In this document: in pieces, positions 14,811 through 52,578 of the stretch
Numbering within the stretch: position 1 is the stretch's first letter
Layout: every line of letters begins with the position of its first letter
Assembly (NCBI GenBank): GCA_038131445.1
Contig: JAYPPL010000010.1
Span: 42,683-106,682, forward strand
DNA: 64,000 nucleotides
Source: Alphaproteobacteria bacterium
Lineage (GTDB): Bacteria; Pseudomonadota; Alphaproteobacteria; UBA6615
Direction: 5' to 3'
The notes under the pieces: generated by a model
The model's database searches: none
Seen by the model: only the letters and a program-made list of their open reading frames with translations
What the model was told of the DNA's origin: nothing
Program-made: the position numbers and the translations under genes

Positions 14811-15095
14811 GCGCTCAGGCGGAGAGGTTGCGGGCGGTAGTGCGAAGTTGGCGAGATCGCTGTTGCCAGTCTCCTCGCCCATGGCGGTGACCCCAGCCGT
14901 GGTGAGCGTGTGAAGCGCCGGTGGGACCGGCGACTGAACATTGCATAGACCGTCGGGCCTTTGGGAGATGCCGACAGTGCAACCAAATTTTTGGCACACA
15001 TTCCTCTCACAATGAACCATCCGCTATCCTTCCACAGTAACGGCAGGAGCCGGTTCTGCTACCTTTAGGACCGGTCAAATGCGGGAGTGGAGTAG

Positions 15096-16091: not shown

Positions 16092-16124
16092 CCGGACGAG
16101 CCGGATCTTGTGGGAAGGAATACG

Positions 16125-17111
16125 ATGAGCGACAACTCACTGAACACCGCTCCTGAACGGCGGGTCCGAAGTAACGACCGCCTGCCCGTGCTGGACCTCG
16201 AGGCTTATCTGGCCGGATCGCCCGGCGCGGAAGTGGCGCTCGCGGCGCAACTGCGAGAGGCATGCGCGGACATCGGGTTTTTCTTCGTGACCGGCCACGG
16301 TATCGACCCGGCGCTAGTCGCCGAGTGCTTCGAGCAGTCTCGGCGTTTCTTCGGCCTTCCTTTGGACAGAAAGCTCCAATGCGCCATGAACGAGAGCCAG
16401 TCCGGCTATCAGCCGCTGCGCGCGTCCGTGTACCAGGACAATCTGAGCCGTGAGAACCGCAAGGCCAGCATCAGCGAGGCCTACAAGTATACCTTTGATC
16501 TGGCGACGGACGATCCGGACTTTGGGTCCGGACGGCGCTTTCGGGACCAGCCCAACTGGCCGGAGGGAATGCCGGGTTTCCGGGAGTTCTGTCAGCGTTA
16601 CATCCGCACGTTCGACGATCTGGCGAACACGCTGCTCGCGCCTCTGTCTCTGTCGCTCGACCTGCCGCGAAATTTTTTTACCGGCGCCTTCGACCGTTCG
16701 ACGTCAGCGGTGCGCCTTGCCCACTATCCGCAGGTGCCGTCGGAAGAGCGCGTCGGAAACATGGGGTCGTTCCCGCATCAGGATCTTTCGTTCCTGACGC
16801 TCATCCCGCCGAGCGATGTTCCGGGGCTCGATGTTCTGCTGCCGGGTGGCGAATGGCTGGAGGTGCCGCGTGTCGAGGGCGCGATCCTCGTGAACACGGG
16901 TATTGCACTCGAGCGATGGACCGCGGGCCGTTACCGCGCGACACCGCACCGCGTGCGCGTTCCGGAGGACACGGACCGGTACTCCAACATCTTCTTCTAT
17001 TACCCGAATCTCGAGGCGCGCATCGAAGACCAAACGACCTTCGAGGACATGCACGTCGCCTATTGTGATCGGAATTTCCAGTACGTGAATGCCATCGCGA
17101 GCGCATCCTGA
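16125..17111 (+). CDS. 2-oxoglutarate/Fe(II)-dependent oxygenase (isopenicillin N synthase family)
   Basis: HxD...H facial triad context (FPHQDLSFLTLI ... ATPHRV). ATG 16125 with a GGAAGG RBS is preferred over the track start at 16110. Confidence 0.8.
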   Translation: MSDNSLNTAPERRVRSNDRLPVLDLEAYLAGSPGAEVALAAQLREACADIGFFFVTGHGIDPALVAECFEQSRRFFGLPLDRKLQCAMNESQSGYQPLRASVYQDNLSRENRKASISEAYKYTFDLATDDPDFGSGRRFRDQPNWPEGMPGFREFCQRYIRTFDDLANTLLAPLSLSLDLPRNFFTGAFDRSTSAVRLAHYPQVPSEERVGNMGSFPHQDLSFLTLIPPSDVPGLDVLLPGGEWLEVPRVEGAILVNTGIALERWTAGRYRATPHRVRVPEDTDRYSNIFFYYPNLEARIEDQTTFEDMHVAYCDRNFQYVNAIASAS

Positions 17112-17218
17112 GACAGCGATGCGTGGCTGCTTTGAGCGCCGATAGCGCGGTGCTAGTTTGAGCGCAAGATACGCGGCGGCCAGGGCCCGCACGCGAAAAC
17201 GGGGGAGAGGATAAGCCA

Positions 17219-18886: not shown

Positions 18887-18894
18887 TTCCTCAC

Positions 18895-19467
18895 ATGGTA
18901 TCCGATGGACGGCGTGCGCTGTTCCTGGATCGGGACGGCGTCATCAACATCGACAGCGGCTACATCTGGCGCCCGGAAGATTTCATCTTCAATGACGGTG
19001 TGTTCGATGCCTGCCGCAAGGCCCGGAATCTGGGCTACTTGCTGGTGGTGGTGACCAATCAGGCTGGGATCGGCCGCGGGCTTTTCTCAGAAAAGGACTT
19101 CCGGGCGCTGACCGAGTGGATGATCGGGCGCTTCGCCGAGGAAGCGATCGAAATCGCGCGGGTATATTTCGCTCCGACGCATCCGGAAGAGGGGATCGGC
19201 GTCTATCGCCGGGAATCGCCCGACCGCAAGCCGGGGCCCGGGATGCTGTTCAAGGCCCGGGACGAGTTCGGGATCGACATGAAGGCCTCCGCCATCATTG
19301 GGGACCGCGAAACCGATATCCTAGCCGGAATCAACGGCGGCGTTGGCCGGCGCATCCTGATCGAGGGCGCGGAGCCCGACACCTCGCAAACGCGAGCGGA
19401 TGTGGTGGTGAGCTCGCTCGCCGAGGGCGTAGACTGGTTGGTCCGACAGCGCGGCCGCCCGTCCTAG
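18895..19467 (+). CDS. HAD-IIIA phosphatase, D,D-heptose-1,7-bisphosphate phosphatase (GmhB)-like
   Basis: FLDRDGVIN (DxDG HAD motif I), VVVTNQAGIGRG, KPGPGM and GDRETDILAG. ATG 18895 lies 9 nt after the ThDP gene stop. Confidence 0.8.
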   Translation: MVSDGRRALFLDRDGVINIDSGYIWRPEDFIFNDGVFDACRKARNLGYLLVVVTNQAGIGRGLFSEKDFRALTEWMIGRFAEEAIEIARVYFAPTHPEEGIGVYRRESPDRKPGPGMLFKARDEFGIDMKASAIIGDRETDILAGINGGVGRRILIEGAEPDTSQTRADVVVSSLAEGVDWLVRQRGRPS

Positions 19468-38125: not shown

Positions 38126-38968
38126 TCAGCGGTGCCGTTGCGGTGAAACCGGCGTGCCGCCTGATGTTTGCTCCCGCTTTCGCGGGGCCATCGCTTTCGC
38201 GGCGACGATCACGGCAACCGTGACCGTCACGATCAGGATGGTCGCGAGGGCGTTGATCTCCGGCGTGAGGCCCAGGCGCACGCTCGAGAAGACGACCATG
38301 GGCAGCGTGCTCGATCCCGGACCGGACACGAAGCTCGCGACGACCAGATCGTCGAGGGAGAGTGTGAACGCCAGCAGCCAGCCCGCGATGAGCGACGATG
38401 CAATCAGCGGCAGTGTTATCGTTATAAAGGCGCGGAGCGGGCTTGCGCCTAGGTCAAGGGCAGCCTCCTCAAGGCTGCGGTCCATCTGGGACAGCCGCGC
38501 CTGAACGACCAGGGTCACGTAGGCCGTCGCGAAGGTGATGTGGGCGAGCGTGATGGTGAGCGCGCTGCGCCCGTCCGGCCAGCCCGTGACCTGTTGCAGG
38601 AACACGAAAAGCAGCAGGAACGACAGGCCGGTAATGACCTCCGGCATCACAAGCGGTGCCGTGGTCATGGCGGAAAACAGCAGCCGCCCGCGAAACCGGC
38701 CGAACCTGACCAGCACGATCGCGCAAAAAGTACCGAGAACCACGGCGCTGGTTGCCGACGCGGCAGCGATCTTCACGCTGAGAAATGCTGCGTCCAGAAG
38801 CTGCGCGTTCCGGACGAGCTCGCCATACCATTTGATGGAGAACCCGCCCCATACGGTGACCAGCTGGGATTCGTTAAAGGAATAGACGATCAGCGAGAGG
38901 ATCGGCCCGTAGAGGAACAGATAGCCAGCCGTCAGTGCGGCCACGAGCCATGCCGACAGTCGCGTCAC
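38126..38968 (-). CDS. ABC transporter permease (PotC-like, polyamine)
   Basis: The GTG start at 38968 overlaps the upstream permease stop (GTGA). The EAALDLGASPLRAFITITLPL EAA-loop is present. Confidence 0.85.
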   Translation of the reverse strand: MTRLSAWLVAALTAGYLFLYGPILSLIVYSFNESQLVTVWGGFSIKWYGELVRNAQLLDAAFLSVKIAAASATSAVVLGTFCAIVLVRFGRFRGRLLFSAMTTAPLVMPEVITGLSFLLLFVFLQQVTGWPDGRSALTITLAHITFATAYVTLVVQARLSQMDRSLEEAALDLGASPLRAFITITLPLIASSLIAGWLLAFTLSLDDLVVASFVSGPGSSTLPMVVFSSVRLGLTPEINALATILIVTVTVAVIVAAKAMAPRKREQTSGGTPVSPQRHR

Positions 38969-39859
38969 GGTCGCGTCTCCCCGCGTCGCTGGCGCAGATG
39001 TTCGAGCCAGGCCAGCGGCGCGACGATCAGCAACAGCATCGTGACGGCGAGCGCGGAGGCGAGCGGCCAGTCCCGGTTGCTGAAGAACTCGGTCCATAGC
39101 ACTTTACCGATCATGGCGGTTCGCGAACTGCCGAGGAGTTCGGGGATTACGAACTCGCCTACGGCAGGAATTAACACGAGCAGGAACCCCGCGATCACGC
39201 CCGGTATCGACAAGGGCAGGGTAATCGTCACGAAAGCGCGCAAGGGCCCTGCACCTAGGTCCAATGCCGCCTCGAGCAGGCTGGAATCCTGGCGTTCGAG
39301 CGCGGCGAACAGCGGCAGGATCATGAAGGGCAAGGTAGGAATAGACGATGCCCAGATGGACGGCGAAGGAGGTTTGCAGCAGCTGGATCGGCGCATCGGT
39401 CAGGCCGGTGGCCTGCAGCATATGGTTGATGAGCCCGTCGCTTTTCAGGAGGCCAATCCAGGCATAGACTCGGATCAGGAACGAGGTCCAGAACGGCAGG
39501 ATTACGGTCAGCAGCAGCAGTGCGCGCCAGCGCTGCGGCGAGCGCGCGATGGCGAGCGCTACCGGATAGCCGATCAGCAGGCAGGCAAAGGCCGATGTCG
39601 CGGCGATCCGAAGCGAATTGATGAGTGCTTTGACGTAGAGCGCATCGCCGAGCAGAAATGTATAGTTGTCGAGACGGGCCAGAATTTCGCCGCCCTGCAC
39701 CAGCGGCTCATAGGGTGGCACACCATAGCGCGACTGGCTGAGCGAGATCGCGAATACAATCAGGAACGGTGCCAGGAAGAACACTGACAGCCAGACGAAA
39801 GGGATCACCGTCACCAGCCGCTGGCCTGCCTGCCCGTTCGGCGAACGCTTGCGGTTCAC
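38965..39859 (-). pseudogene. ABC transporter permease (PotB-like) interrupted by a 1-nt frameshift
   Basis: The N-terminal part is in the frame of ORF 39104..39859, up to ...FAVHLGIVYSYL. The remainder is in the frame of ORF 38965..39396 (PFMILPLFAALERQDSSLLEAALDLGAGPLRAF...). The frame switches at about 39328-39336 (TACCTTGCCCTTCATG; one extra nucleotide relative to YL-PFM). Confidence 0.75.
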
Positions 39860-40992
39860 GTGGTCAGCACCACCCCGTCTTCGGGGTGCCAGGTAAGGTG
39901 GATTGTATCGCCCCAGGTGACGGGTGCTTCGCCGGTGTGGCGGCGATTAGCCTGGGCGACCTGTATCCGTGGCCCGCCGGAGACCTGCACATGATAGATC
40001 GACATGTCGCCCAGATAGGCAATGTCCTCGACGACACCTGAGAGGAGGTTGGCTTCGCCGAAGATGGTGTTCCGGTCGGCAGTAGCCCGCAGTTTTTCCG
40101 GGCGTACCATCGCGGTCACCTGATCGCCCTGTTTCACGGGCGTGGCGGCGGACACATGAACAAGTATCCCTGTGTCACTCAACCGGATCTGCGCGATCCC
40201 GTCCGTCTTTGCCATGACTTCTCCGGGGAGAAGGTTGGCCGTGCCGACGAAATCAGCCACGTAGCGCGAGTTCGGGTATTCGTAGATCTGACGCGGCGCG
40301 CCGATCTGTTGAATTCGGCCGGCGCGCATGACGGCGATCCGGTCCGACATGGTCATCGCTTCTTCCTGGTCGTGCGTGACGAGGATGAAGGTGGTGCCGA
40401 TCCGATTCTGGAGATTGACGAGCTCGAACTGGGTGCGCTCGCGCAGCTTGCGGTCGAGGGCACCGAGCGGCTCATCCAACAACAGGATGCGTGGACGCTT
40501 GGCGAGCCCGCGCGCTAGCGCGACGCGTTGGCGTTGTCCGCCGGACAACTGGTCCGGCCTGCGCTCTGCCAGATCCTGCATATCGACCAGCTGGAGCATT
40601 TCGTAGACCCGCTCGTCGCGCTCACCTCGGGCCATGCCTTCTTGCCGCAGTCCGTAGGCGACGTTTTGAGTGACCGTCATGTGTGGAAACAGCGCATAGG
40701 ACTGGAAAACCATGTTCACGGGCCGCTCATAGGGCGGGATATTGGTCATGTCTTGCCCGTCGATAAGGAGCCGCCCGCTGTCGGGCGTTTCCAGCCCCGC
40801 GATCATGCGCAGCAGGGTGGACTTACCGCAGCCCGAGCCACCGAGCAGCGAGAACAGTTCACCCCGCCGCACCGTGAGATCGACGCTATCGACAGCGGTG
40901 ACATTGCCAAACCGCCGGGTCAAGCCTTGCAGGTCCAGAATGTCCCCGGATACTGGAGCCTGCTCTGCGCGCCCTGGATTCGATGAGGTCAT
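39856..40992 (-). CDS. ABC transporter ATP-binding protein (PotA-like)
   Basis: Walker A GGSGCGKST, signature LSGGQRQRVALARGL, Walker B ILLLDEP, and a C-terminal TOBE-like domain. Confidence 0.9.
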   Translation of the reverse strand: MTSSNPGRAEQAPVSGDILDLQGLTRRFGNVTAVDSVDLTVRRGELFSLLGGSGCGKSTLLRMIAGLETPDSGRLLIDGQDMTNIPPYERPVNMVFQSYALFPHMTVTQNVAYGLRQEGMARGERDERVYEMLQLVDMQDLAERRPDQLSGGQRQRVALARGLAKRPRILLLDEPLGALDRKLRERTQFELVNLQNRIGTTFILVTHDQEEAMTMSDRIAVMRAGRIQQIGAPRQIYEYPNSRYVADFVGTANLLPGEVMAKTDGIAQIRLSDTGILVHVSAATPVKQGDQVTAMVRPEKLRATADRNTIFGEANLLSGVVEDIAYLGDMSIYHVQVSGGPRIQVAQANRRHTGEAPVTWGDTIHLTWHPEDGVVLTT

Positions 40993-42089
40993 TGACCCGT
41001 CTTGATCCGCGTCCAGATGCGGTTACGCTGACGTTCGAAGGACGGCGACTTCAGCGGCACCACGAACAGGTGGTCGCGGGTCTCGGTGTTCGGATACACG
41101 ACAGGATCGTCAAGCCGCGCCTGTTCCACAAACGCTTCCGCGCCGTCCACCGCGTTGGCATAGCCGACCGCGTTGGTGATCGGTCCCACGACATCGGGGC
41201 GCATCATGAAGTTTATGAAAGCGTGTGCGTTCCCGGGGTGCTTCGCATCTGCCGGGATAGCCATCACATCGATTACCGCTTGGGCGCCTTCGCGGGGCAG
41301 GAAGACACGAATTTCATTGCCTCTTGCAGCGTCTGTGGCCCGGTCGCGGGCCTGGATCAGGTCGCCGCCATAGCCGTGCGCCAAACAGATCTCGCCGTTG
41401 GCCAGATCATTGATGTAGGACGACGAGTGGAAGTAACGCACGAAGGGCCGGATCTTCTCAATCATCGCTGCGGCACGTTCCAGATCCCCGGTCTTCTCAG
41501 TTGCCGGATTGATGCCGAGATAAGCGTAGGCGGCGGCAAACACCTCATTCGGGTCGTCGAGCAGAGAGATGCCGCAGGATGAGAGCTTTTCCGCCCAGGC
41601 CGGATCGAAGATCACCGCCCAGCTGTCCGTTGGCGCGTCCGGCGCGGCGGCAGCCACCTTGGCGACGTTGTAGCCGACGCCTGTACCCGCGACCATATAG
41701 GGCACGGCATGTTTGTTGTCCGGATCGCCGCCTTCGGCGAGGGAGTTGAGGACCGACGGCATAATGTTCTGCCAGTTCGGTAGAAGGCTGCGATCGAGTT
41801 CCTGGTAGATTCCGGATTTTACCTGGCGCGCCAAGAAAGGAGAAATCGACGGAAATACGACATCGTAGCCCGAGGAGCCAGCCATCAGCTTCGCCTCTAG
41901 AACCTCGTTGGAGTCGTAAACATCGTAATTAACCTGGATGCCGGTCTCGGCTGTGAAGCGTGCCAGAGTGTCTTTCGCGATGTAGTCGGACCAGTTGTAA
42001 ACATTAAGGACTTTTGCCTCGTCTGCCGTCGCCGAACCGGCGGCTGCGGCAAGCATGACGACGAGGAGGGACTGAAGAAAGCTGCGCAT
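40989..42089 (-). CDS. periplasmic polyamine-binding protein (PotD/PotF family)
   Basis: ATG 42089 gives a signal peptide MRSFLQSLLVVMLAAAAGSATA, followed by LNVYNWSDYIAKDTL, typical of PotF/PotD. Confidence 0.85.
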   Translation of the reverse strand: MRSFLQSLLVVMLAAAAGSATADEAKVLNVYNWSDYIAKDTLARFTAETGIQVNYDVYDSNEVLEAKLMAGSSGYDVVFPSISPFLARQVKSGIYQELDRSLLPNWQNIMPSVLNSLAEGGDPDNKHAVPYMVAGTGVGYNVAKVAAAAPDAPTDSWAVIFDPAWAEKLSSCGISLLDDPNEVFAAAYAYLGINPATEKTGDLERAAAMIEKIRPFVRYFHSSSYINDLANGEICLAHGYGGDLIQARDRATDAARGNEIRVFLPREGAQAVIDVMAIPADAKHPGNAHAFINFMMRPDVVGPITNAVGYANAVDGAEAFVEQARLDDPVVYPNTETRDHLFVVPLKSPSFERQRNRIWTRIKTGQ

Positions 42090-42314
42090 TGCACATTTGC
42101 CCCTTGGTAAGCCGCTATCCAGGCCGCGCCATCGCGGCAGGAGGTTCGGGAACCAATTGGGAGATTTCTTCCCGGGTGGCAGGGTTGTCAATATGATCCG
42201 ATGTGTGTGAACGAAATTTTCTGCACTCGACAGACCACGCAAGGATGAGATTAGTGGGTGGCTTCGACCTGCCCTCACACGAATGTGTGATCGGAATGCT
42301 CAGACGCGCTTCGG

Positions 42315-42626
42315 TTGTGCAAATTGGCCGTCATTATGATCACCGGTGTGACGTCTCAGCGAATAAGAGTGGCATTGTCTAAGTTTGCCGCCGGCGCATC
42401 GGGCAGGGTAACCATTGCCTGCGATTGGAGCGGGGGAAAAGGATTGTCCGTGATTAAGGCGCGTGCACGTGTTCTCGTTGAGGCAGACAACGCCGTGAAC
42501 CGGCGTCTGTTCTTCTCCATTCTGGGCGAGGCGCGGAATATCCCCATCCGGTCCAATATCACCGGGTTCGCGGCGGCGGTGAACGGTGCGGCGTTCTATT
42601 TCGTTTTGGATGGCAACGCAGAATAG
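42315..42626 (+). pseudogene. possible response-regulator receiver-domain fragment
   Basis: ARVLVEADNAVNRRLFFSILGEA...AVNGAAFYFVLDGNAE* resembles the first half of a receiver domain (ILVVDDN.vNr..., ...DLVLMD) and stops right after the phospho-Asp position. There is no convincing start or RBS. Confidence 0.3.
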
Positions 42627-42791
42627 GCCCTATTGTTGTATCTGCGAGCATAAATACGCGGCGTTGTTTTTCATCTGCATTGCAGTACTACTTGTCGCGA
42701 AGGTCGCCTTTGCCATTGGTATGCTGTTGCGCGGGCTTTCGTCGGCGCTGCATCGCGCCTGACCGGTTGTTTGTTCGAGGAAGAGACCCGC

Positions 42792-43781
42792 ATGTCTGTG
42801 ACCATTGAGAGCCTCGGCTCAGTTGTGCCTTATGGCCGTTTCACACATCCCGACTTCACCGATGCGGGCGAGAACCGTGCACAAGTGTCCCAGCGCGCCC
42901 TGTCCACCCTGTGGTTCAACACCGGGACCCTGTGCAACATCGAATGTGCCCACTGCTACATTGAATCGAGCCCGCGCAACGATGCCCTGGTCTATCTGAC
43001 CACCGCCGACGTCGAACCCTATCTCGACGAGATCAAGACGGGCGGGCTGCCGACCCGCGAGATCGGTTTCACCGGCGGTGAACCGTTTCTGAACCCCGAT
43101 ATAATTCCGATGGTGGGCATGTGCCTGGCGCGTGGCTATGAGGTATTGATCCTCACCAATGCCATGCAGCCGATGCAACGCCCGACGGTGAAGGAGGGCC
43201 TGCTCAACCTGAAGGCGGCCCATGGCGACCAACTCAAGTTTCGGGTCAGTATCGATCACTTCACCGCCAGTATGCATGACGCCGAGCGCGGCGCGGGCAG
43301 CTTTGTCCGGGCGCTTGAAGGCCTCGACTGGTTGGCGGAAACCGGTTTTGCCATCGCTGCCGCTGGGCGGACCCGGTTTGGGGAGGACGAGGTGACCCTG
43401 CGCGCAGGCTTCCGTGCGCTGTTTTCTGCGCGTGGTTACCCCATCGACGCAGACGACCCGTCGCAACTCGTGCTGTTTCCCGAAATGGACGAGCAGGCGG
43501 ATGTGCCGGAAATAACCACCGCCTGCTGGGGTATCCTCGATGTGTCGCCTGACGCGATGATGTGCGCGGAAAGCCGCATGGTTGTCCGGCGCAAGGGCGC
43601 AGATGCGCCTGTCGTTTTGCCATGTACCCTATTGCCCTTCGACCCAAATTTTGAGATGGGGCGAACCCTAACCGAGGCTGCGACGGTGGATGGTGGTAAT
43701 TTTGAGTGTGGTGCCGTGAAGCTGAACCACCCCCATTGCGCCAAGTTTTGTGTGCTGGGTGGTGGAAACTGCTCCCAGTAA
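42792..43781 (+). CDS. radical SAM protein with Cys-rich C-terminal domain (ArsS/DUF3641-like architecture)
   Basis: The CNIECAHCY CxxxCxxC motif, and a C-terminus HPHCAKFCVLGGGNCSQ. ATG 42792 is preceded by GAGGAAGAG. Confidence 0.8.
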   Translation: MSVTIESLGSVVPYGRFTHPDFTDAGENRAQVSQRALSTLWFNTGTLCNIECAHCYIESSPRNDALVYLTTADVEPYLDEIKTGGLPTREIGFTGGEPFLNPDIIPMVGMCLARGYEVLILTNAMQPMQRPTVKEGLLNLKAAHGDQLKFRVSIDHFTASMHDAERGAGSFVRALEGLDWLAETGFAIAAAGRTRFGEDEVTLRAGFRALFSARGYPIDADDPSQLVLFPEMDEQADVPEITTACWGILDVSPDAMMCAESRMVVRRKGADAPVVLPCTLLPFDPNFEMGRTLTEAATVDGGNFECGAVKLNHPHCAKFCVLGGGNCSQ

Positions 43782-43949
43782 ACGGGGCGTTTTAGTTCAT
43801 CTTTCGGTAAAGCATCCGTAAAAGATTTTACTCGACGAATGATCCGCACAGACGAAAAATCCACCACCGGTGTCTAGCCAGAACACCAATCGGCCGCGTC
43901 CGCGCAGAGGTCAACACTTGGCGGGGCGGTGCCACTTAGAGGAGGAAGA

Positions 43950-44333
43950 ATGTTTTCCCATATCATGATCGGCGCGGATGACGTCGAGGTATCTAAGAAA
44001 TTCTACGATGCGGTTCTCGCGACCGTCGGTGTGTCGGAAGGCACGCTAGACCCCAAGGGCCGTATCTTCTACCGGACCTCTTCGGGTGTTCTCGCCATTT
44101 CCAAGCCTCTCAATGGTGAGCCGGCCTGTGGCGCCAATGGCGGCACGATTGGGTTTACCTGTGATAACCCCGAGATAGCGGATGCTTGGCACGCCGCCGG
44201 CTTGGCAAATGGCGGCACTACTGCCGAGGACCCTCCGGGATGGCGCGAGGGTGCAGCGGGCAAGGTATATTTGGCCTATCTGCGCGATCCCTTCGGCAAT
44301 AAGATCTGCGCGCTGCACCGCCCCAAGACTTAA
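43950..44333 (+). CDS. VOC family protein
   Basis: MFSHIMIGADDVEVSKKFYDAVL...AYLRDPFGNKICALH. RBS GGAGGAAG lies before ATG 43950. Confidence 0.75.
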   Translation: MFSHIMIGADDVEVSKKFYDAVLATVGVSEGTLDPKGRIFYRTSSGVLAISKPLNGEPACGANGGTIGFTCDNPEIADAWHAAGLANGGTTAEDPPGWREGAAGKVYLAYLRDPFGNKICALHRPKT

Positions 44334-44355
44334 GCCACGCCGCGAAAATCTATTT

Positions 44356-44400
44356 GGGGCCGTCGTCGCATGTTCAGGCCGAGACGGCGGCCCCTACATT
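44356..44400 (+). terminator. rho-independent terminator after the VOC gene
   Basis: GGGGCCGTCGTC...GACGGCGGCCCC stem (one mismatch) followed by TACATTTTG. Confidence 0.5.
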
Positions 44401-44544
44401 TTGTAATGAAAGGTGTTTTTCTGGAGGCCTGCATGCCCAGTTTGTTCCGCTTGAGTCGTCTGTTCGCAGCCTAAAGGCGCGATGGTGCATATTCGCCGTT
44501 CTCTAAAAACAAAAAATCAAAAGTTGGCCTCTTGGTAAGTCGTA

Positions 44545-45198
44545 TTATCGTCTTAGTACTTCACAGGCGATACCATCTCCATCGCCATCCAACTTATGAG
44601 GGTCTCCCGGTCTTGCCGCCTCGTAGAACTTTTGAGCCTCTTCATGCGTCCGAAAGTCCTTACAGTCTCGGTCTTCAAAACTGCTTTGGCGTTCATGTTC
44701 TTTTGAAGAGTATCTTTCGCCTCGTCGCCATTGCTCTGGCGCCACAAAACTTCCTGACCAAATGCCAAGTCTTGATTTCTGTGCTTCCATCTCTTCGATA
44801 ACATAGTCGGTCGAGTAGCGCCGATAGGCTATCGCCCAACCGGTAGCAACCATCTCGCGGTTAAGTTCAACTCCGAGCGGTCCCCCTATCGAGCAGACAG
44901 CAATAATCCGGCCGTAACGATCTTTGTCGATCTCTGAGCAATCGACCCAATGGTTTTCAACCAAGGCAGCCAAAGCAGCTGTCGCCTCGAAACCACAACG
45001 CCATTCCTGACTATTGCGCGAACAAACTTGATCTTTCTCAGGTGCGTCAATTCCATGAAGGCGGACAGCGACCGGACCAAAGTTCAGAGAGTCTCCGTCT
45101 ACGACACTTGGTTTGCCACTAATGGCCTCAGCATCTTGAACACCGATAGTGATGAAAATCATTGCAGTCGCGCAAAATATTTTGAAATGGTAATCCAT
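44545..45198 (-). CDS. secreted thermonuclease (SNase family) with C-terminal Excalibur calcium-binding domain
   Basis: N-terminal signal-like segment, VVDGDSLNF...RLHGIDAPE...[10 protein letters not shown]...[10 protein letters not shown], and a C-terminal [14 protein letters not shown]...[10 protein letters not shown] (DxDxDGxxCE). Confidence 0.85.
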
Positions 45199-45277
45199 TG
45201 ATTTTAGAGCCTTATGGACGCTTGGTACTCGGTTCCCTTGCTTTGATCTGGGTGTAAGTATTTGATAGATTTAGAGT

Positions 45278-45662
45278 ATGCTTAAAACAAAATCCATTTT
45301 GATGGTCGGCTGTTGTTTTCTTATCGTTATCGTATCAAGCAGCAGTACAATCTTCTAACGCGAGTACGGATGAGCTTCTCGATGGTATCGTCGCTTTAGA
45401 GGCATGCGACACATCCCAGGAAATGCACGACGAGAAAAAATGTGAGGCATTCCTTGTTGGGGTCACAGCTGCCTTGTCTTGGTTGCAAATTTATCAAAAC
45501 CTTGATCCCACCTACTGTGTACCTGCAACGACCGTCATTCGCATTCCTGGTTATCGAGATATCTTTGTAAAATGGATGAATGAAAACCCTAGTCAACTTC
45601 ACGGGCACTCAGTTGGATTGTTTGTGAAATCTATGGAACAGGCATTCCCCTGTAAGCCATAA
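45278..45662 (+). pseudogene. Rap1a/Tai4-like periplasmic (immunity-type) protein, signal peptide out of frame
   Basis: ORF 45423..45662 has the pattern C.AFL.GV..AL....YC.P.....VKWMNENPSQLH......V.S....FPC that I associate with Rap1a/Tai4 immunity proteins. A signal or lipoprotein-like start (MLKTKSILMVGCCFLIV, ATG 45278) lies in another frame and stops at 45358. The mature frame is open back to 45303 without a start codon. Confidence 0.4.
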
Positions 45663-45972
45663 ATTACGGCGTATTAGTTGGATGCTTGATTAAATGTGTC
45701 TATGAATTTCTCAAGAACCCCTCGGAAAGAGCATCGTCCTGCGCCACCGAAATGCGGTTCGGAGGACCGCTGAGGAGTTCGATAAGACTGAAAAGCCGAT
45801 CCTTGGTCAGATTTGGGTTGCCGCAATAATTCTTGTTATAGCTCGCAACATATTGGCAACTCTACGCTAACCGCAGTATTGGAAACTTGGCCGACTGGTT
45901 GTGGTTCGTAGTCTGGTAACTTAAGACATGGATCGGGAGTTTGCGCGCTACCTTTATGTGATTGAGGCTTTC

Positions 45973-46015
45973 CAAAACAAAAGCCCCCCGGAGGCGATAT
46001 GCCACGGGAGGCTTT
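45973..46015 (-). terminator. rho-independent terminator downstream of the 97-aa gene
   Basis: The minus strand reads AAAGCCTCCCGTGGCATATCGCCTCCGGGGGGCTTTTGTTTTGG, a hairpin followed by a T-rich run. Confidence 0.5.
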
Positions 46016-46125
46016 GAATTGTGATTATTTCAGCACGTGATACCAAGAACTTGGTAGAGAAGTATAAATTTTTGATTCTGGTTGTATTTTAGATTTACCG
46101 TGCCCTAGTTTCAGTCCTGACTTTC

Positions 46126-46419
46126 TTAGGTGTTCTTAACCGCCTTGATACCCTTTTCTCCACGACCACGTGATTTATAAACCGTATATCCCTTCGAGCC
46201 TAAGTTGAGGGCATCAACACCTTCAGCCGAGGAGAGGATTTCCACGATTCTCTCTGCGACCGCATCTACCTTTTCAACCTTCACATTAGCTTTCCGCCAC
46301 TCGTCGAATGCTTTTTGGCCCAACTCATCGCCAATTGATTTCTTTAACGCATTCAATTTACGAATTTCGCCCTTCGACAGATCTGTCACGTCGACACTCC
46401 TTGGTGAAAATTTAAACAA
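46126..46419 (-). CDS. small Lys/Arg-rich hypothetical protein with C-terminal SRGRGEKG motif
   Basis: 97 aa from ATG 46419. An internal GTG at 46389 is preceded by AAGGAG and would give an 87-aa product MTDLSKGEIRKLNALKKSIGDEL.... The gene has its own terminator and an AT-rich repeat-bearing upstream region. Confidence 0.5.
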   Translation of the reverse strand: MFKFSPRSVDVTDLSKGEIRKLNALKKSIGDELGQKAFDEWRKANVKVEKVDAVAERIVEILSSAEGVDALNLGSKGYTVYKSRGRGEKGIKAVKNT

Positions 46420-46510
46420 GAGAAAATTTCATAACACTTAAAAAAAATTTTTCAAAGAAAAATTTCACTAAATAATTTCCAATTGGTGCTAAACGAAAAG
46501 AGAAATTTGA
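46404..46510. repeat. cluster of GAAA(A)ATTTC/A motifs in extremely AT-rich DNA upstream of, and into, the 97-aa gene
   Basis: Copies at 46406-46415, 46422-46430, 46457-46466 and 46502-46510, with a degenerate AATAATTTCC at 46471-46480. Each is a short GAAAT/ATTTC inverted repeat. Confidence 0.3.
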
Positions 46511-47082
46511 ATATTTGGTCTTAATTTTTTTGAGTATCAAATGCGGCGTGCACGGTAAAATGCTCGACTCTCTAACTTAGGGGCATCTAAGAAATACAAC
46601 TCCTAAGGCGCTAAGTGATATTTTTGGTGTTATCTTAGCTTTTTCTCTCGCTGCTGGCGCCATTTCACAAGTCCTTCGGGATACGGGAATCGATATAAGA
46701 TCCGGCCTTCCCAGAGGCTATGTGTACCGACTTTATAAATCGCTGGAAAAGTGTCCGAACGCATTCGGACCGCTCTCGTGCGTGAGGAAAAATATTCATA
46801 GTAGTGGCTGAAATCTAACGCCACCTAACTCGGTGTCCTAGCGCGCGGATTGGGCAGGGGCCTTGGGGACCCGGCAAAGGTATCATCGGCACTATCGAGG
46901 CATATCTGTTCAGTTCGCCGATGCAACAAATCGGGCTGCGTCAGAGACTAAGCCGTTCGGTTGATTACTCTCACCCCCGGCTTTTTACGAACCCCTGATT
47001 ATCTTTTTGTTGAAATCAAAAAAAGCGAGTGAAGACGCACAAACGCGCGATTACAGATATTGATTAAGTTATTGATTTTGAA

Positions 47083-47157
47083 TGGTGGGCGCGGCTGGGA
47101 TTGAACCAGCGACCCCTGCCGTGTGAAGGCAGTGCTCTCCCGCTGAGCTACGCGCCC
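47083..47157 (-). tRNA. tRNA-Val (anticodon CAC)
   Basis: The reverse complement GGGCGCGTAGCTCAGCGGGAGAGCACTGCCTTCACACGGCAGGGGTCGCTGGTTCAATCCCAGCCGCGCCCACCA folds as a cloverleaf. It has a 7-bp acceptor stem, an anticodon stem CTGCC/GGCAG with loop TTCACAC, a T-arm GCTGG-TTCAATC-CCAGC, and an encoded CCA. Confidence 0.9.
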
Positions 47158-47401
47158 GCCCCGTTTCGGAATGCAGTCCTATAGGGCGGGCGCTTCGAGG
47201 GTGTCAAGCTGGTCCGCGCGCGCTGGCAACAGGGCGCTGGTCTCCGGCGAGGCCGAAGACGACTGAAGCGCAGAGTTTTTCGAGCCTGGAGCGCTTTAAC
47301 AATCTGGAACAATTCGTTACTTGGAGCGATTCCGCTCTTTGTGCAATTTTTCACAAATCTTTCAGAAAGAATTCCACTTGTCCCAGCGCTGAATCTCGAC
47401 C

Positions 47402-48742
47402 ATGACCGACACGCCGATCGCCGTAGTGATCCTCGCCGCCGGCAAGGGTACCCGGATGAAATCCGCTTTACCCAAGGTGATGCATGCCGTCGCCGGCCGC
47501 CCGATGATTGCGCATTTGCTCGACACCGTGTTGGAGCTGGCGCCGCAGAGGGTAATCGTGGTGGTCGGCCCGGGCATGGATGTCGTCACCGAGACGGTCG
47601 CGCCGCACCTGACCTGCGTTCAGGAAACACGTGACGGCACCGGCGGCGCGGTCAAGGCCGCAAGCGGCGAACTCGAAGGTTTCACCGGCACCGTCCTGGT
47701 TCTCTATGGCGACACACCGCTGGTACGTGCGGAGACCATGCGCGCTGCGGCTAAGGCCTGTGCGCGAGATGGCGGCGGCGCGGCGGTCTCCGTCCTTGGT
47801 TTCCGGCCTGCTCATTTCCACCAGTACGGCCGCCTGATCACCAATGCTGATGGTGCGCTGGAGGCCATCGTCGAGGCGAAGGATGCCTCGCCGGAAGAGC
47901 TTGCCGTGAACCTGTGCAATTCCGGCGTCATGGCGTTCGACGGCCGGCACCTGCTAGGCCTGCTCGACCGGCTGGATACGAACAACGCCAAGGGCGAGTA
48001 CTACCTGACTGACACGGTCGCGCTGGCGCGCGGCGACGGGCTGTTCGCTACGGTCGTAGAGGGCGACGAGGACGAGCTCCTGGGCGTCAATTCCCGCGCC
48101 GATCTCGCGTTGGCCGAAGCGGTGGTGCAGGGTGAACTGCGAGCGCGGGCGATGGACGGCGGCGCGACGCTGGTCGATCCCGGCACGGTCTGGTTTCACC
48201 ATGACACGACCCTTGGGCAGGACGTGGTGGTCGGCCCCAATGTGGTCTTCGGGCCCGGCGTTACCGTGGCCGACAATGCGGAGATCCGCGCCTTCTGCCA
48301 TCTGGAAGGCGCAACGGTGGAAAGCGGCGCGATCATCGGGCCTTATGCGCGGCTGCGTCCCGGCGCGCTGGTGGGCCGCGCGGCCCATGTCGGCAATTTC
48401 GTCGAGATCAAGAACGCCAGTCTCGGCCCCGGCGCGAAGGCCAACCACCTGACCTATATCGGGGATGCGGATGTCGGCGCGAAGTCCAACATCGGCGCGG
48501 GCACCATTACCTGCAATTATGACGGCTTCGGCAAGTACCGCACGGTAATCGGTGAGGGGTCCTTCATCGGCTCGAACTCGGCGCTGGTCGCGCCGGTCAC
48601 CATCGGCGACGGGGCCATCGTTGCGGCAGGCAGCACGATTTCCCGCGACGTAGAGGCCGACGCGATGTCCATCGGGCGCGCGCCCCAGGACGACAAGCCT
48701 GGCTGGGCAGCGAAGTTCCGCAAGCTGAAGTCGAAGGGTTAG
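47402..48742 (+). CDS. glmU: bifunctional UDP-N-acetylglucosamine diphosphorylase / glucosamine-1-phosphate N-acetyltransferase
   Basis: 446 aa. N-terminal LAAGKGTRMKS, and a C-terminal left-handed beta-helix hexapeptide repeats. Confidence 0.95.
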   Translation: MTDTPIAVVILAAGKGTRMKSALPKVMHAVAGRPMIAHLLDTVLELAPQRVIVVVGPGMDVVTETVAPHLTCVQETRDGTGGAVKAASGELEGFTGTVLVLYGDTPLVRAETMRAAAKACARDGGGAAVSVLGFRPAHFHQYGRLITNADGALEAIVEAKDASPEELAVNLCNSGVMAFDGRHLLGLLDRLDTNNAKGEYYLTDTVALARGDGLFATVVEGDEDELLGVNSRADLALAEAVVQGELRARAMDGGATLVDPGTVWFHHDTTLGQDVVVGPNVVFGPGVTVADNAEIRAFCHLEGATVESGAIIGPYARLRPGALVGRAAHVGNFVEIKNASLGPGAKANHLTYIGDADVGAKSNIGAGTITCNYDGFGKYRTVIGEGSFIGSNSALVAPVTIGDGAIVAAGSTISRDVEADAMSIGRAPQDDKPGWAAKFRKLKSKG

Positions 48743-48745
48743 GTC

Positions 48746-50683
48746 ATGTGCGGTATTATCGGCATTCTGGGCGCGGGCGATGCCGCGCCGCGCCTGCTGG
48801 AAGGGCTCAAGCGGCTGGAATACCGGGGGTACGACTCCGCCGGGATCGCGACCATCGTCAACGGCTCCATCGGTCGCCGCCGGGCAGAGGGCAAGCTGGA
48901 AAACCTCGCGAAGTTGCTCGACGCTGACCCGCTGACGGGTGATGTCGGCATCGGCCACACCCGCTGGGCCACTCACGGCGCGCCGAACGAGCACAACGCG
49001 CACCCCCATGCCACATCGCGAGTGGCCGTGGTGCACAATGGCATCATCGAGAATTTCCAGGAACTGCGCGCTGAACTGGTCGAGGCCGGCCACAACTTCG
49101 AGAGCGACACCGACACGGAAGCCGTTGCGGTCCTGATCAGCCGGGAGCTGGAAGGCGGCGCGTTGCCGCGCGAGGCCGTCGCCGCGACCCTGCCGCGCCT
49201 TCAGGGAGCCTTCGCGCTGGCCATCGTCTTCGCGGGTGAGCACGACCTGATGATCGGTGCGCGCCGCGGCAGCCCGCTGGCAATCGGCTATGGCGAGGGC
49301 GAGATGTTCCTAGGCTCAGACGCGCTGGCGCTGGCGCCGCTGACCAAGCGTATCAGCTATCTAGAAGAGGGCGACTGGACCGTCATCACCCGAGATGGCG
49401 CGGCAGTCTTTGACGAGAACGGCACAGCCGTTACCCGCGCCGTGCGCGAGACAGAACTGTCCGGCGCGCTGATTGGCAAGGGTAATTACGACCACTTCAT
49501 GCAGAAGGAAATCTTCGAGCAGCCCGCGGTGGTCGGTGACACGCTGCAGTCCTTCATCAATGCGACGACGCGCGAGATCAGCCTGCCCGACCTGCCGTTC
49601 GATTTCGCTGATATCCCGCGTTTCACCATCGTTGCCTGCGGTACCGCATGTTACGCAGGCTGGGTCGCGAAATACTGGCTGGAGACGGTGGCGCGCATCC
49701 CGGTCGAGATCGACGTGGCGTCCGAGTTCCGCTACCGCGAGGCGCCGCTGCCGGAGGGTGGCGTGGCGCTGTTCGTCAGCCAGTCGGGCGAAACCGCCGA
49801 CACGCTGGCGGCGCTGCGCCACTGTCGCGCACACAAGCAGCACATCGTCTCGGTCGTGAATGTGGGTGAGAGCTCCATCGCGCGGGAATCCGACGTGGTC
49901 CTGCCGACGCTGGCCGGGCCCGAAATTGGCGTCGCCTCGACCAAGGCGTTCACGACACAGCTCGCCGTGCTCGCCTGCTTTGCCATTGCCGCGGCCAAGG
50001 CGGGCGGGACCATCGATGCGGCGCGCGCGGCGGAACTGGCCGGTGCGCTAACCGAGGTGCCCTCGCGCATGACCGAGGTGCTGAACCATGACGATGCCCT
50101 GCGCGAGATTGCACGCGACGTGGCGAAGGCGCGCGACGTGCTCTATCTCGGGCGCGGCACGGCCTTCCCGCTGGCCATGGAAGGCGCGCTGAAGCTCAAG
50201 GAAATCTCCTACATCCACGCCGAGGGCTATGCCGCCGGCGAGATGAAGCACGGGCCGATCGCGCTCATCGACCAGGAGGTGCCGGTCATCGTGCTGGCGC
50301 CGGGCGACAACCTGTTCGACAAGACCCTGTCGAATGTGGAGGAGGTGATCGCGCGCGGCGGCAAGGTGGTCTTTATGTCCGACCGCGCCGGGCTGAAACG
50401 CCTGTCCGACAAGGCATTCGCGACGGTCGAGATGCCGGATATCGATCCCTTCGTCGCGCCGCTGCTGTATTCGATCCCGATCCAGCTTCTGGCCTATCAC
50501 ACGGCCGTCGCCAAGGGCACGGATGTGGACCTTTTTCTTTCTTTCGCGGATGATAATGGTCAACTCACGCCTATCAGGGCAAGAGAAATTCAACTCGCAG
50601 TTCGATATATTGAAGAACTGGGGGTTCCACCGGGTAACATTTTTGTTTTCGGGCAGAGTAGAGGCGGGTGGAGCACCCTATAA
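48746..50683 (+). CDS. glmS: glutamine--fructose-6-phosphate aminotransferase with non-native C-terminal extension
   Basis: MCGIIGI (Cys2 nucleophile) and two SIS domains. It is canonical up to ...LAYHTAVAKGTDVD (ends 50530). It then continues for 50 unrelated codons in AT-rich DNA, instead of the conserved ~12-residue tail. Confidence 0.9.
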   Translation: MCGIIGILGAGDAAPRLLEGLKRLEYRGYDSAGIATIVNGSIGRRRAEGKLENLAKLLDADPLTGDVGIGHTRWATHGAPNEHNAHPHATSRVAVVHNGIIENFQELRAELVEAGHNFESDTDTEAVAVLISRELEGGALPREAVAATLPRLQGAFALAIVFAGEHDLMIGARRGSPLAIGYGEGEMFLGSDALALAPLTKRISYLEEGDWTVITRDGAAVFDENGTAVTRAVRETELSGALIGKGNYDHFMQKEIFEQPAVVGDTLQSFINATTREISLPDLPFDFADIPRFTIVACGTACYAGWVAKYWLETVARIPVEIDVASEFRYREAPLPEGGVALFVSQSGETADTLAALRHCRAHKQHIVSVVNVGESSIARESDVVLPTLAGPEIGVASTKAFTTQLAVLACFAIAAAKAGGTIDAARAAELAGALTEVPSRMTEVLNHDDALREIARDVAKARDVLYLGRGTAFPLAMEGALKLKEISYIHAEGYAAGEMKHGPIALIDQEVPVIVLAPGDNLFDKTLSNVEEVIARGGKVVFMSDRAGLKRLSDKAFATVEMPDIDPFVAPLLYSIPIQLLAYHTAVAKGTDVDLFLSFADDNGQLTPIRAREIQLAVRYIEELGVPPGNIFVFGQSRGGWSTL

Positions 50684-51766
50684 TACGCAGCAGAGAGAAG
50701 AGCGCCTGAATTAGGGGGGGGTATGTGGTTTTCGCTCCGGCGATCTGTGGTCCTCGACCTTTGCAATGCTGGGATGTTATCAGGAGGCATATAAGTTTGT
50801 TTAAGTCTGCGCAGATTGAGGGCATTTTATATTCACACTCTAAGGATCGCTTTTTTACTCCCAAAGAGCATAGTTTTGCTAAGGAGGTGAAGGGTCTTAC
50901 GTTACGAACGGGATTTTGAGAGGAACTTACTAGCAAGCAAGCGCATGGTGCTTACCCGAAGAAAATGCAGTGGATCTTTTGGTCGGGAGTTGGAAGTCAG
51001 GGATTTTATCGCGGTCTCGAAACGTATCGCCTTAACTTTACGAAACTGAATTTTCTCATGTCACTGAGTGCAACATCTCGCCCGCGAATGCGGAACCGTA
51101 TTGGGAGAGGGAAGTACGGGTTATGGATTTTACTATTAGTTGCGAAAAAATGAGATTTACCTTTAATTTTGGTAATAATATGAATCTCTTTTGAATACAT
51201 GGAGAAAGTTCGAAATCATGATAATCCGTACGATCGCCCTTATCGGCATGTTTTTTATCGTTACCTTTCAGGCGCCATCGTTTGCTAACGAAAAATTCAC
51301 TTTTGAACAAATAATGGAAATGATGGAAGGCGCTGATGTCCGTTATAAACGAACTGGTCATTATAGTAATATTCCCTTTAAATTAGAAAAAAGGGCGAAA
51401 AATGGCGACTTACTCAGATGCAAAACAGGTATCGGGGAACGATTACAAGCGCTGGAGATAATAAAATTCGCCTGGATGGTTTTGGAAGTGGATGGACCAT
51501 AGTGGGGACTTGGGATTTCGAGAAAGAAGGGAATACTTGTAGGATTGACCACACACTTAAAGATTCAACTGGCAGCGAACCCATGGAAATGGTGTGGGTC
51601 TGTAACAAATGAGAATCTGCTCGAAGATGAGTGTCCCCCATAATTCTATAATTTTATTGCATCTAATGGCGCTCAACCTCCCCAAGAGTGTGTCGATGGA
51701 TCGTCTGGGTTAGTAAGTTCCTCTAGATGTTCAAAGTAAAAGATTGGGAGGCTTGGTCTGAAGTTT
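50531..51766. mobile_element. AT-rich inserted segment at the glmS 3' end containing only gene debris
   Basis: The GC drop begins exactly at the break in GlmS homology. The segment contains an alpha/beta-hydrolase fragment (NIFVFGQSRGGWSTL, then frame-broken pieces around a G8 run at 50714-50721) and a frameshifted small secreted-protein gene. No transposase or integrase is present. Confidence 0.5.
51218..51612 (+). pseudogene. small secreted hypothetical protein, frameshifted
   Basis: MIIRTIALIGMFFIVTFQAPSFA signal peptide, with this frame open to 51502. The C-terminal part (YRGTITSAGDNKIRLDGFGSGWTIVGTWDFEKEGNTCRIDH...VCNK) is in the frame of ORF 51418..51612. Confidence 0.35.
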
Positions 51767-52578
51767 TTAGCCCCAAATGATCATAACGGACAGGATAAGG
51801 GCCAGATAGCCGATAAACATCCGGTGGATCAGCACGTCCGGGATGCGGTGGGAAATCTTTACGCCGCCCGGTGAGCCAAAGATCGCGCCAACGGCGAGGC
51901 CCGCGAAGGCCGGGCCGTACAGATACCCGAAGGCAAAGTCCGGCAGGCCCGTCTCGTCAAAGCCGCCATAGATGTAGCCGCCCGCCGAGGCGAGGCCGAC
52001 CATCGCGGCCAGCGCCGAACAGCTCGCGGCCACCATGGGCATGGAATAGCGGTGACGCGAAGATACGGGCCGATCACCATCGCAGGCCCGGGGCCTAGGA
52101 GCGAACCCGTGATCCCCGTCAGCGTGCCGTGGAACCACAGGCCCGGTCCGCGCACGTTGTGGAGGTCGCCGCCGGCAGCCACCGTCTCGTGGCCCTTGTA
52201 GAAAATGCCCCGCAGGATTGCGACGCCGATGAAGCCCATGAAGATGATCTTCAGGACATCGCCGGGAAGGTAGTCACCGAAGATCGAGCCGGCGACGGCG
52301 CCGATCACGATGAACGGCACGAAGCGCAGGGTGACGGGCAGTTGCAGGTCGCCGGTCCGGTAGCGCAGGGCCGCGACATAGGCCGAGGTCGCGGCCATCA
52401 CGCCCAATGCCGTTCCTGCTGAGAGATGCATCACATGCTCGTCGGGCACACCCTGCAGGGGCAGGCCGATGATCAGGGCCGGGGCCATGGTGAAGGCACC
52501 GCCGACGCCGAACAGGCCGGAGACGAACCCGGCCAGCGCGCCGGTCAGGAAATAGATCAGGATGATTTCGTAGAGCAT
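51767..52578 (-). pseudogene. sulfite exporter TauE/SafE family protein, 1-nt frameshift
   Basis: The N-terminal 170 codons are in the frame of ORF 51859..52578 (MLYEIILIYFLTGALAGFVSGLFGVGG...GPGPAMVIGPYLR). The C-terminal part is in the frame of ORF 51767..52138 (RHRYSMPMVAASCSALAAMVGLASAGGYIYGGF...). The frame switches at about 52055-52062. The intact paralog next door aligns across the junction. Confidence 0.7.

Follow-up and report, generated by a model that had tools for sequence, protein, structure and literature searches.

A glmS gene cut short within its conserved C-terminal tail at a hotspot of serine-recombinase islands in an alphaproteobacterium

The 3′ end of glmS, which encodes glucosamine-6-phosphate (GlcN-6-P) synthase, is the classic landmark of Tn7, which inserts ~23–25 bp downstream of the glmS stop codon and leaves the gene intact. 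Other elements interrupt genes: skin in sigK and SPbeta in spsM of Bacillus subtilis are large-serine-recombinase (LSR) elements whose precise excision restores the gene. Foreign DNA can also be captured by homology-facilitated illegitimate recombination, as described in Acinetobacter, Pseudomonas stutzeri, and pneumococcus. Escherichia coli glmS mutants need glucosamine (GlcN) or N-acetylglucosamine (GlcNAc). In the Islander/TIGER concept of integrative genomic islands, a target gene is split and regenerated and a displaced fragment is left behind (PMC4383910). Here we analyze the glmS locus in a 64,000-nucleotide (nt) stretch of an alphaproteobacterial genome (assembly GCA_038131445.1, contig JAYPPL010000010.1, positions 42,683 to 106,682 of the forward strand; hereafter, the window), in which the glmS reading frame is broken at codon 596 and runs on into low-GC DNA of foreign character.

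The glmS open reading frame (ORF) spans 48746..50683 on the + strand in the ORF list of the window and encodes 645 amino acids (aa). It starts with MCGIIG and so has the N-terminal Cys1 of an N-terminal nucleophile (Ntn) glutaminase, and the protein is matched in Pfam by GATase_6, GATase_7, and two SIS domains. The GlmS-like reading extends up to ..AYHTAVAKGTDVD at codon 595 (..GTDVD), which ends at 50530, and is followed by 50 codons unrelated to GlmS (LFLSFADDNG...GQSRGGWSTL) that terminate in a TAA at 50681–50683. The glmS equivalog profile TIGR01135 matches the window protein over positions 1–595 of 607 (751 bits), vs all positions, 1–607, in the close relative P0133. The C-terminal tail DQPRNLAKSVTVE, with the equivalent of Lys603, is thus absent from the ORF, and the extension, read from its sequence, has zero lysines. 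The initial annotation had described the gene in much these terms, as canonical to codon 595 and then unrelated for 50 codons, lacking the tail and its lysine, entering AT-rich DNA at the junction, and reading into a hydrolase fragment; each of these descriptions was borne out, with GC content changing from 0.66 to 0.48, 0.39, and 0.52 across 50501–52000 and then to 0.67 beyond, and with the extension homologous to P0002–P0004 and to L081 and L082.

This ending is found nowhere else. The canonical ending QPRNLAKSVTVE, followed by the stop codon, is present in 22/22 of the nearest genome relatives, and a canonical tail in 74/74 relatives, where departures from the commonest ending are confined to the two residues before PRNLAKSVTVE. 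The 24 nt directly 5′ of the break recur in 24 metagenome contigs, every one of which has an intact tail, and the full-length members listed for the window's 90% protein cluster are all 607 aa long and all tailed. In total, >100 relatives have kept the tail, those of the same cluster at 95–98% nt identity among them. No protein among 5.8 billion ends in the chimeric way, and no identical entry for the exact window GlmS, GlmU, or 458-aa neighbor was found in public collections. Alignment with orthologs, a check proposed in the initial annotation, confirmed the truncation point and returned no relative with the extended C terminus that, by the terms of that annotation, would have refuted it. The truncation of GlmS is real and is restricted to this one sequence.

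Catalysis in the bacterial isomerase domain relies on Glu488, His504, and Lys603, the active site and the ammonia channel are both formed in part by the C-tail, and removal of the last four residues from the yeast enzyme disrupts domain coupling (PMC3224219). Human GFAT2 tolerates a short C-terminal tag, but does so with the tail present (PMC7948480). Because the C-tail, which carries the catalytic Lys603 and closes the sugar site and the ammonia channel, is gone and the extension contributes no lysine, the 645-aa product most likely has no GlcN-6-P synthase activity, in which case the phenotype to be expected is that of E. coli glmS mutants. The strain would then need amino-sugar salvage or would be carrying a short-lived deleterious allele; no second glmS was found within the 64-kb window. 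If the lesion is real and fixed, the strain is an expected marine amino-sugar auxotroph and a testable case of dependency evolution. There is also a caution for annotation, since a long, intact-looking glmS ORF that scores above the family threshold may be without its catalytic tail, and pipelines would label such a tail-less glmS functional.

Comparison with the nearest relatives reveals that native DNA has been exchanged. L098 and L099 share 93% nt identity with the window in glmS and 95–97% in the flanks, L113 and L114 share 95% over 38726–50529 with the tRNA-Val island included, and L115 shares 98.2%, but its contig stops at glmS codon 269. In L098, L099, and L113, the intact glmS tail is followed by genes for a 553-aa thiamine pyrophosphate (TPP) enzyme and a 476-aa aldehyde dehydrogenase, and in L098 and L099 an intact 271-aa TauE comes after the aldehyde dehydrogenase gene. 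Relative to the locus of these three, 3371 nt, which run from the last 12 glmS codons across the genes for the TPP enzyme and the aldehyde dehydrogenase to the last TauE codon, have been swapped for 1239 nt in the window, and neither enzyme gene was found elsewhere in the window. Relative to close relatives, the event is a replacement and not a simple insertion. The initial annotation had an element or recombination event landing inside the last ~36 nt of glmS rather than downstream of it; the position holds, with the break in the last 36–39 nt, and simple insertion does not, given the 3371 nt replaced. The comparison with the closest relatives that it called for returned an intact tail with TPP-enzyme and aldehyde dehydrogenase genes after it.

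The patch that took the place of this DNA (Table 1) is a mosaic. At its left edge, blastn homology with L099 stops at 50531, and alignment with the hydrolase contigs L081–L083 leaves a microhomology of only 1–2 nt. In L081, L082, and L083, the hydrolase gene carries on without a break at the position where, in the window, it meets glmS; because the edge falls in the middle of this gene, with so little microhomology, on these alignments it is an illegitimate junction and not an element end. The pseudogene lacks ~100 N-terminal codons that are present in the metagenome proteins P0002–P0004, which read ..GELTPIRAREI..GQSRGGWSTLY.. and have ~100 further N-terminal residues. It carries a nonsense codon at 50681–3, a frame change at a G8 run at 50714–50721, and a TGA at 50917–9. 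The first of these, which is the TAA that ends the GlmS extension, is a window-only change of a Tyr codon, TAT, found in L081–L083. Identity over 50533–51053 is 84% to L081 and L082 and 73% to L083 at the nt level, and tblastn with the L083 protein recovers the pseudogene at E = 2e-20. The GQSRGG motif (G-x-S-x-G) is conserved in P0002–P0004; the window gene is truncated and frameshifted. Pfam returned no match for the 50-aa piece or for the L083 hydrolase halves, and the L108 homolog scores 24.9 bits against Hydrolase_4, under the family cutoff of 27.

Further to the right lies a small secreted-protein gene, frameshifted near 51385–51410 so that it appears as split ORFs 51191..51502 and 51418..51612. 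It shares 89% nt identity with an intact 152-aa gene at L008:13720–14178, inside a glmS-adjacent island, 92% with L109–L112, and 86% with L108, and intact homologs P0005–P0012 are 130–132 aa long. Beyond it is a remnant of a glmS 3′ tail that reads (M)ALNLPKSVS(MD), the native counterpart being QPRNLAKSVTVE. A 30-nt tail core with ≤7 mismatches retrieves only true glmS tails from 1.2 Mb of relatives and only 51672–51701 from the window, and a 19-nt core with ≤2 mismatches finds only 51674–51692 in the window and has no match in 100 shuffles (0/100). Compared with the tails of L099 and L113, the remnant has 5/28 mismatches, four of them nonsynonymous, at residues that never vary. It is joined, at an imperfect microhomology (ACG-TGGA), to a remnant of the C-terminal region of an LSR (..RWIDWVGKFHEM..), 33/37 nt of which are identical to L008:14591–14627, with a score of 54 vs a shuffle maximum of 26; the sequence across this junction is CAACCTCCCCAAGAGTGTGTCGATGGATCGTCTGGG. 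Two other identities for the tail remnant were rejected: it is not a piece of the recombinase gene, where homology to the L008 recombinase begins sharply at 51694, and it is not an island attachment (att) core, as it spans codons 597–605 and is without the core of L008, L010, and L083, whose att cores hold only the last 12–16 nt of glmS. At the right edge, the new TAA at 51767–9 stands in place of the last TauE codon, relatives having one codon more before the stop, and homology to all relatives picks up again at 51770/51771, the penultimate TauE codon.

The three spacers of the patch (about 51054–51229, 51606–51667, and 51731–51769) have no significant source among the fetched loci, and the patch has no match in the plasmid collection. 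A whole-window Rfam scan at the gathering threshold gave only tRNA-Val and hence no group I or group II intron or other RNA element in 50531–51766. A self-splicing intron that restores the frame was rejected on this ground and because the body and remnant, when joined, do not yield the conserved tail. Two side observations concern the patch. In 4/4 copies of the cargo hydrolase (73–84% nt identity), the two halves lie in different frames that switch at the same G-run, which is G8 at 50714–50721 in the window (region 50660–50730) and a homologous G5 in L081, L082, and L083; this shared switch could be a conserved, perhaps programmed, frameshift, or it could mark an old pseudogene, common to all four, whose sequence still appears constrained. 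In addition, a perfect 14-nt inverted repeat (AGAGGAACTTACTA/TAGTAAGTTCCTCT) at 50919–50932 and 51711–51724 has its arms in the end of the hydrolase pseudogene and in the recombinase remnant, with ~0.005 chance pairs expected in 1.7 kb by our estimate.

Table 1 Features of the glmS locus and its flanks, in window coordinates
Feature	Coordinates	Strand	Remarks
tRNA-Val(CAC)	47083-47157	-	beside second low-GC island
glmU, 446 aa, intact	47402..48742	+	directly upstream of glmS, same orientation
glmS body, codons 1-595	48746..50530	+	Ntn glutaminase + 2 SIS domains; intact, conserved
Left junction (GAC/C)	50530..50532	+	end of glmS homology, start of hydrolase homology
Read-through extension + TAA	50531..50683	+	50 codons, in-frame fusion to hydrolase fragment
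5′-truncated putative alpha/beta-hydrolase pseudogene	50531..51053	+	homologs P0001-P0004, L081-L083
AT-rich spacer	51054..51217	.	no significant match in fetched loci or plasmid collection
Small secreted-protein gene, frameshifted	51218..51612	+	homologs intact in L008, L108, L109-L112
Spacer 5′ of tail remnant	51613..51667	.	only marginal 20/21 match, L014:5833-5854
glmS 3′ tail remnant	51668..51697	+	codons 596/597 to ~606; stop codon lost
Large serine recombinase remnant, 38 nt	51694..51731	+	C-terminal region
Spacer + new TAA	51732..51769	.	right patch edge; TAA on minus strand
TauE/SafE-family gene	51767..52578	-	Pfam TauE; 1-nt deletion between 52057 and 52058, frameshifted

The glmS body upstream of the break shows no relaxed selection. 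None of the 136 sites that are universally invariant in 74 relatives is changed (0/136), 2/324 clade-invariant sites are changed, which is within the range of relatives, and the ratio of nonsynonymous to synonymous divergence (dN/dS) is 0.04–0.05 vs L098 and L113. Against L098, dS is 0.278 and dN 0.0106, with 7 nonsynonymous and 27 synonymous changes on the window branch and 3 and 14 on the sister branch; against L113, dS is 0.153, and after that split, the window acquired 2 nonsynonymous and 17 synonymous changes and the L113 branch 7 and 40. Mismatches do not cluster in the stretch of glmS next to the left junction, and an arithmetic estimate places neutral drift of the body at no more than ~0.005 substitutions per site. 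Given a body without relaxed selection, the lesion is most likely recent, and the choice left by the initial annotation between a crippled glmS and a tolerated chimeric tail is mostly decided in favor of a recently crippled gene.

The tail remnant is another matter. Window-specific neutral divergence, from synonymous counts and from noncoding divergence (2–11% between the window and L113), is ~0.03–0.05 per site, so that at most ~1.3 changes are expected in the remnant on the window-specific branch vs the 5/28 observed (Poisson P ~0.01). By this comparison, the remnant is too diverged to be the lineage's own freshly displaced tail, since its divergence exceeds what the short private branch after the split from intact-locus relatives would allow. 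Its right neighbor, moreover, is a recombinase fragment and not native downstream DNA. The initial annotation had pointed to a displaced tail at 51675–51701 as a marker of the original junction; the homology to a glmS tail is genuine, but the remnant is probably not such a marker, because it is fused to the interior of a recombinase and is diverged beyond the short private branch.

These same numbers bear on an older origin for the arrangement, in which glmS took up a 1.1-kb fragment at codon 596 in the distant past, its own tail survives as the neutrally decaying remnant, and the tail-less GlmS body plus extension has been under purifying selection. At ~0.18 per site, the remnant has diverged as far as the window branch is long when measured against L098, the body is strongly purified while the remnant has 4 nonsynonymous changes at residues invariant in >100 GlmS, the breakpoints are complementary to within 1–4 nt, and fewest rearrangement events are needed. 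A pristine body beside a decayed tail would imply, were the remnant the gene's own, that a tail-less GlmS is under selection, and thus that a free-living bacterium makes GlcN-6-P without the Lys603 C-tail or that the GlmS body has another selected function. Against this stand L113 and L114, which have derived states in common with the window and match it at 95% identity, yet possess an intact locus, leaving a window-specific branch of ~0.03–0.05 per site that is too short for 5/28 changes (P ~0.01). Native downstream DNA does not adjoin the remnant, the allele is found in no other genome or metagenome, and the tail, with its catalytic lysine, is universal, whereas the extension has no lysine. 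The residues needed solely for the synthase reaction are all conserved as well, which is paradoxical if the reaction has been lost. We regard an ancient insertion as unlikely; a GlmS that works independently of its tail would be surprising.

The interval between glmS and TauE is a hotspot of islands in marine Rhodospirillaceae-like alphaproteobacteria, and these are LSR islands, not Tn7. In L004 and L021, only 9 nt separate the glmS stop codon from the shared TauE 3′ end, and inserts between the two genes in other relatives range from ~85 nt to >6 kb. The LSR att core consists of the last 12–16 nt of glmS plus TTTCCAACG and is repeated at attL/attR of L010, at the tandem units of L008, and in L083. 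The L010 island (11826–17912) is a 6-kb element with an insertion sequence (IS) transposase, cargo genes, and a full recombinase (domains Resolvase, Recombinase, and Zn_ribbon_recom), flanked by repeats of the form ..ACCGTGGAGTA(G/A)-TTTCCAACG. L008 (11813–14902) has two tandem 1357-nt units, each opening with the last 12 nt of glmS, and its recombinase ORF aligns to residues 398–543 of the complete L010 recombinase (E = 9e-43). In L083 (370–745), the att core is followed by a recombinase-domain ORF and then by a hydrolase gene. The patch thus has cargo in common with islands at the same locus, namely the small secreted-protein gene (L008) and the hydrolase family (L083). As further observations, LSR islands also lie right after the glmS stop codon in L005, L007, L009, L015, and L019, and a 70–146-aa ORF with the "Recombinase" domain alone is always found 3′ of the att core on the + strand. 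The same pair of hydrolase and small secreted-protein genes occurs in a tyrosine-integrase island by guaA in L108 (GCA_038146925.1; 9357–10399 and 13464–16446), from which it follows that the cargo module moves between islands with different recombinases and targets.

The landmark used by Tn7 is therefore reached here by a different recombinase, that of LSR islands with an att core over the glmS stop codon. As at attTn7, the glmS 3′ end serves as landmark and foreign low-GC DNA lies at the glmS 3′ flank; unlike there, the break falls within the ORF, at codon 596, neither Tns genes nor Tn7 ends are present, and the elements of relatives are serine-recombinase islands. A Tn7-like element was rejected, as no tnsABC/tnsD-type genes, ends, or core were found and the break is inside the ORF, and the link to Tn7-type elements drawn in the initial annotation does not survive: the hotspot is used by LSR islands, and the window has neither Tns genes nor an att core. 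In broader form, the idea would be site-specific integration inside glmS by a Tn7-like or recombinase-borne element, with the patch as the eroded element and the remnant as displaced target. The landmark itself, the LSR islands of relatives at the same locus, and island biology, which predicts a displaced target fragment (PMC4383910), would fit. We nevertheless consider it highly improbable. The window contains no Tns or recombinase genes, no att core at ≤3 mismatches, and, in tblastn with the L010 recombinase, nothing beyond the 38-nt remnant; the LSR crossover in relatives is at or after the stop codon, its core (the last 12–16 nt) falling short of codons 597–605; the patch edge on the left cuts through the interior of a hydrolase gene that L081–L083 have without interruption; and the target gene was not regenerated.

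Two further parallels can be drawn. As in Islander/TIGER islands, a target 3′ fragment lies at the far side in the same orientation, and L008 and L010 are tandem islands with glmS-end repeats; unlike in these islands, the target is not regenerated, and the remnant covers codons 597–605 rather than an att core, has an illegitimate junction on either side, and seems to predate the lesion. Skin and SPbeta share with this locus the recombinase family and an interrupted host gene; they differ in that only 38 nt of the recombinase are left here and rejoining body and remnant gives no canonical tail.

The reading that we favor, and hold to be rather probable, is a recent, lineage-specific lesion of glmS at an island hotspot, caused by an imported patch of decayed island DNA. 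In this clade, LSR islands insert at the glmS stop codon and accumulate and decay before the convergent TauE gene, and in the lineage of the window a 3.37-kb native segment was replaced by 1.24 kb of already-decayed island DNA; the patch, with the remnant in it, would have come from such an "island graveyard" between glmS and TauE in a more distant relative. On this scheme, one homologous crossover would have taken place inside the TauE 3′ end and one illegitimate join, at 1–2 nt of microhomology, would have linked glmS codon 595/596 to the middle of the hydrolase pseudogene, the 50-codon in-frame extension being an accident of the join. We infer a single-step import, with which the tail remnant probably arrived. 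One homologous anchor and one illegitimate end, with the intervening recipient DNA deleted, is the pattern of homology-facilitated illegitimate recombination: the one-sided anchor is the TauE 3′ end (51771–51970), the microhomology join is opposite, and recipient DNA is replaced. It differs from the described cases in being read from sequence only and in concerning an organism not known to undergo natural transformation. Events of this kind are already known; this one is ordinary genome flux, in which illegitimate recombination at a hotspot of mobile elements has clipped an essential-pathway gene.

The TauE flank is consistent with such an anchor. The 3′ 200 nt of TauE (51771–51970) are 12% diverged from L099, vs ~3% further in, with 24 mismatches in this stretch vs 20 in the next 600 nt, and 21/25 window variants in it also occur in other relatives; among outgroups, the TauE 3′ stretch is only slightly more variable. 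Because divergence is raised here and most variants are common to other relatives, 51771–51970 looks like a donor-derived homologous tract. Hypermutation close to the break was rejected as a cause, there being no cluster on the glmS side and the TauE-side variants being mostly common to other relatives.

Several points weigh against the account of import and lost function. Codon 596 position 1 is the last glmS position of the body, and the remnant, which lies on the same strand, starts somewhere from codon 596 position 3 to codon 597 position 2; break and remnant start are thus complementary to within 1–4 nt, as plain insertion predicts, and under import and replacement this would be a coincidence with an estimated probability of 0.001–0.05. 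The donor arrangement was found in no collection searched. The raised divergence of the TauE 3′ end is polarized to both branches and supports a donor tract only indirectly, and polarization of substitutions was by parsimony on few sequences, where branch lengths could be skewed by recombination between closely related lineages. As for function, enzyme inactivity is drawn from the enzymology of E. coli and yeast and not from this protein, and our view of salvage genes or a second glmS is confined to the 64-kb window.

Complementary breakpoints also speak for a recent insertion in situ, in which a break in codon 596 was filled with a captured piece of DNA, the remnant is the gene's own tail, the TPP-enzyme and aldehyde dehydrogenase genes were lost in a separate deletion, and the five differences in the remnant are a statistical fluke or the product of mutagenic junction repair. 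The right side of the patch is a patchwork of 28–60-nt pieces, much like template switching or end-joining repair, and microhomology is present at both the body–hydrolase and tail–recombinase joins. This course of events would, however, pack three or more independent rearrangements into a very short branch; mutations are not clustered in glmS beside the left junction; and known rates of repair-associated mutagenesis are far below 18% divergence over 28 nt. Import and own-tail models each have one anomaly, at roughly the 1% level; we hold a recent insertion in situ to be distinctly improbable and retain import of decayed island DNA as the preferred reading.

Finally, the junction might be an artefact of assembly or binning, in which the glmS of one strain was joined to island DNA of another and the real glmS is intact. 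The hotspot is strain-variable, the allele occurs in no other dataset, and contigs of two metagenome-assembled genomes in the same cluster (P0134 and P0136/L115) break inside glmS. Only 1–2 nt are shared at the left junction, however, which makes a k-mer graph join impossible, the two flanks keep the order and orientation of the native locus and enclose a coherent patch, and mis-joining cannot yield a decayed remnant and a recombinase piece. The neighboring sequence is also good, with few indels vs two independent sister contigs, mostly intergenic. An assembly that is indel-ridden in general was rejected, as comparison with the same two contigs turned up one coding frameshift only, that in TauE, in ~8 kb. 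An artefact is in our judgment very unlikely. The contigs of L115 (GCA_038114605.1, JAYNRC010000309.1) and P0134, which belong to the same 90% GlmS cluster, end at glmS codons 269 and 254, respectively, and these breaks hint at strain heterogeneity or assembly trouble at glmS in natural populations.

The TauE frameshift is a 1-nt deletion apparent against four relatives plus L098 and L099; with the base restored, the protein is identical to that of the sister over ~220 aa. An intact TauE/SafE paralog lies at 52588 to ~53400 on the − strand. On the other side of glmS, glmU shares 95–98% nt identity with L113 and L115, where its orthologs have NTP_transferase and Hexapep domains. A second low-GC island (44480–47080, GC 0.40–0.49) lies beside tRNA-Val, on the opposite side of glmU–glmS from the patch, and encodes a secreted SNase/Excalibur nuclease (44545–45198, − strand) and small ORFs; no direct repeat of the tRNA-Val 3′ end was found to bound it. 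L113 and L114 have this island at ~95% identity, so it predates the glmS lesion. Its ORF at 46126–46419 (− strand) has a homolog inside the L010 glmS island (18802–19176). Finally, P0096, a 744-aa GlmS from an ENA metagenome, has an internal tandem duplication of ~137 residues in the region of the first SIS domain and keeps the canonical tail.

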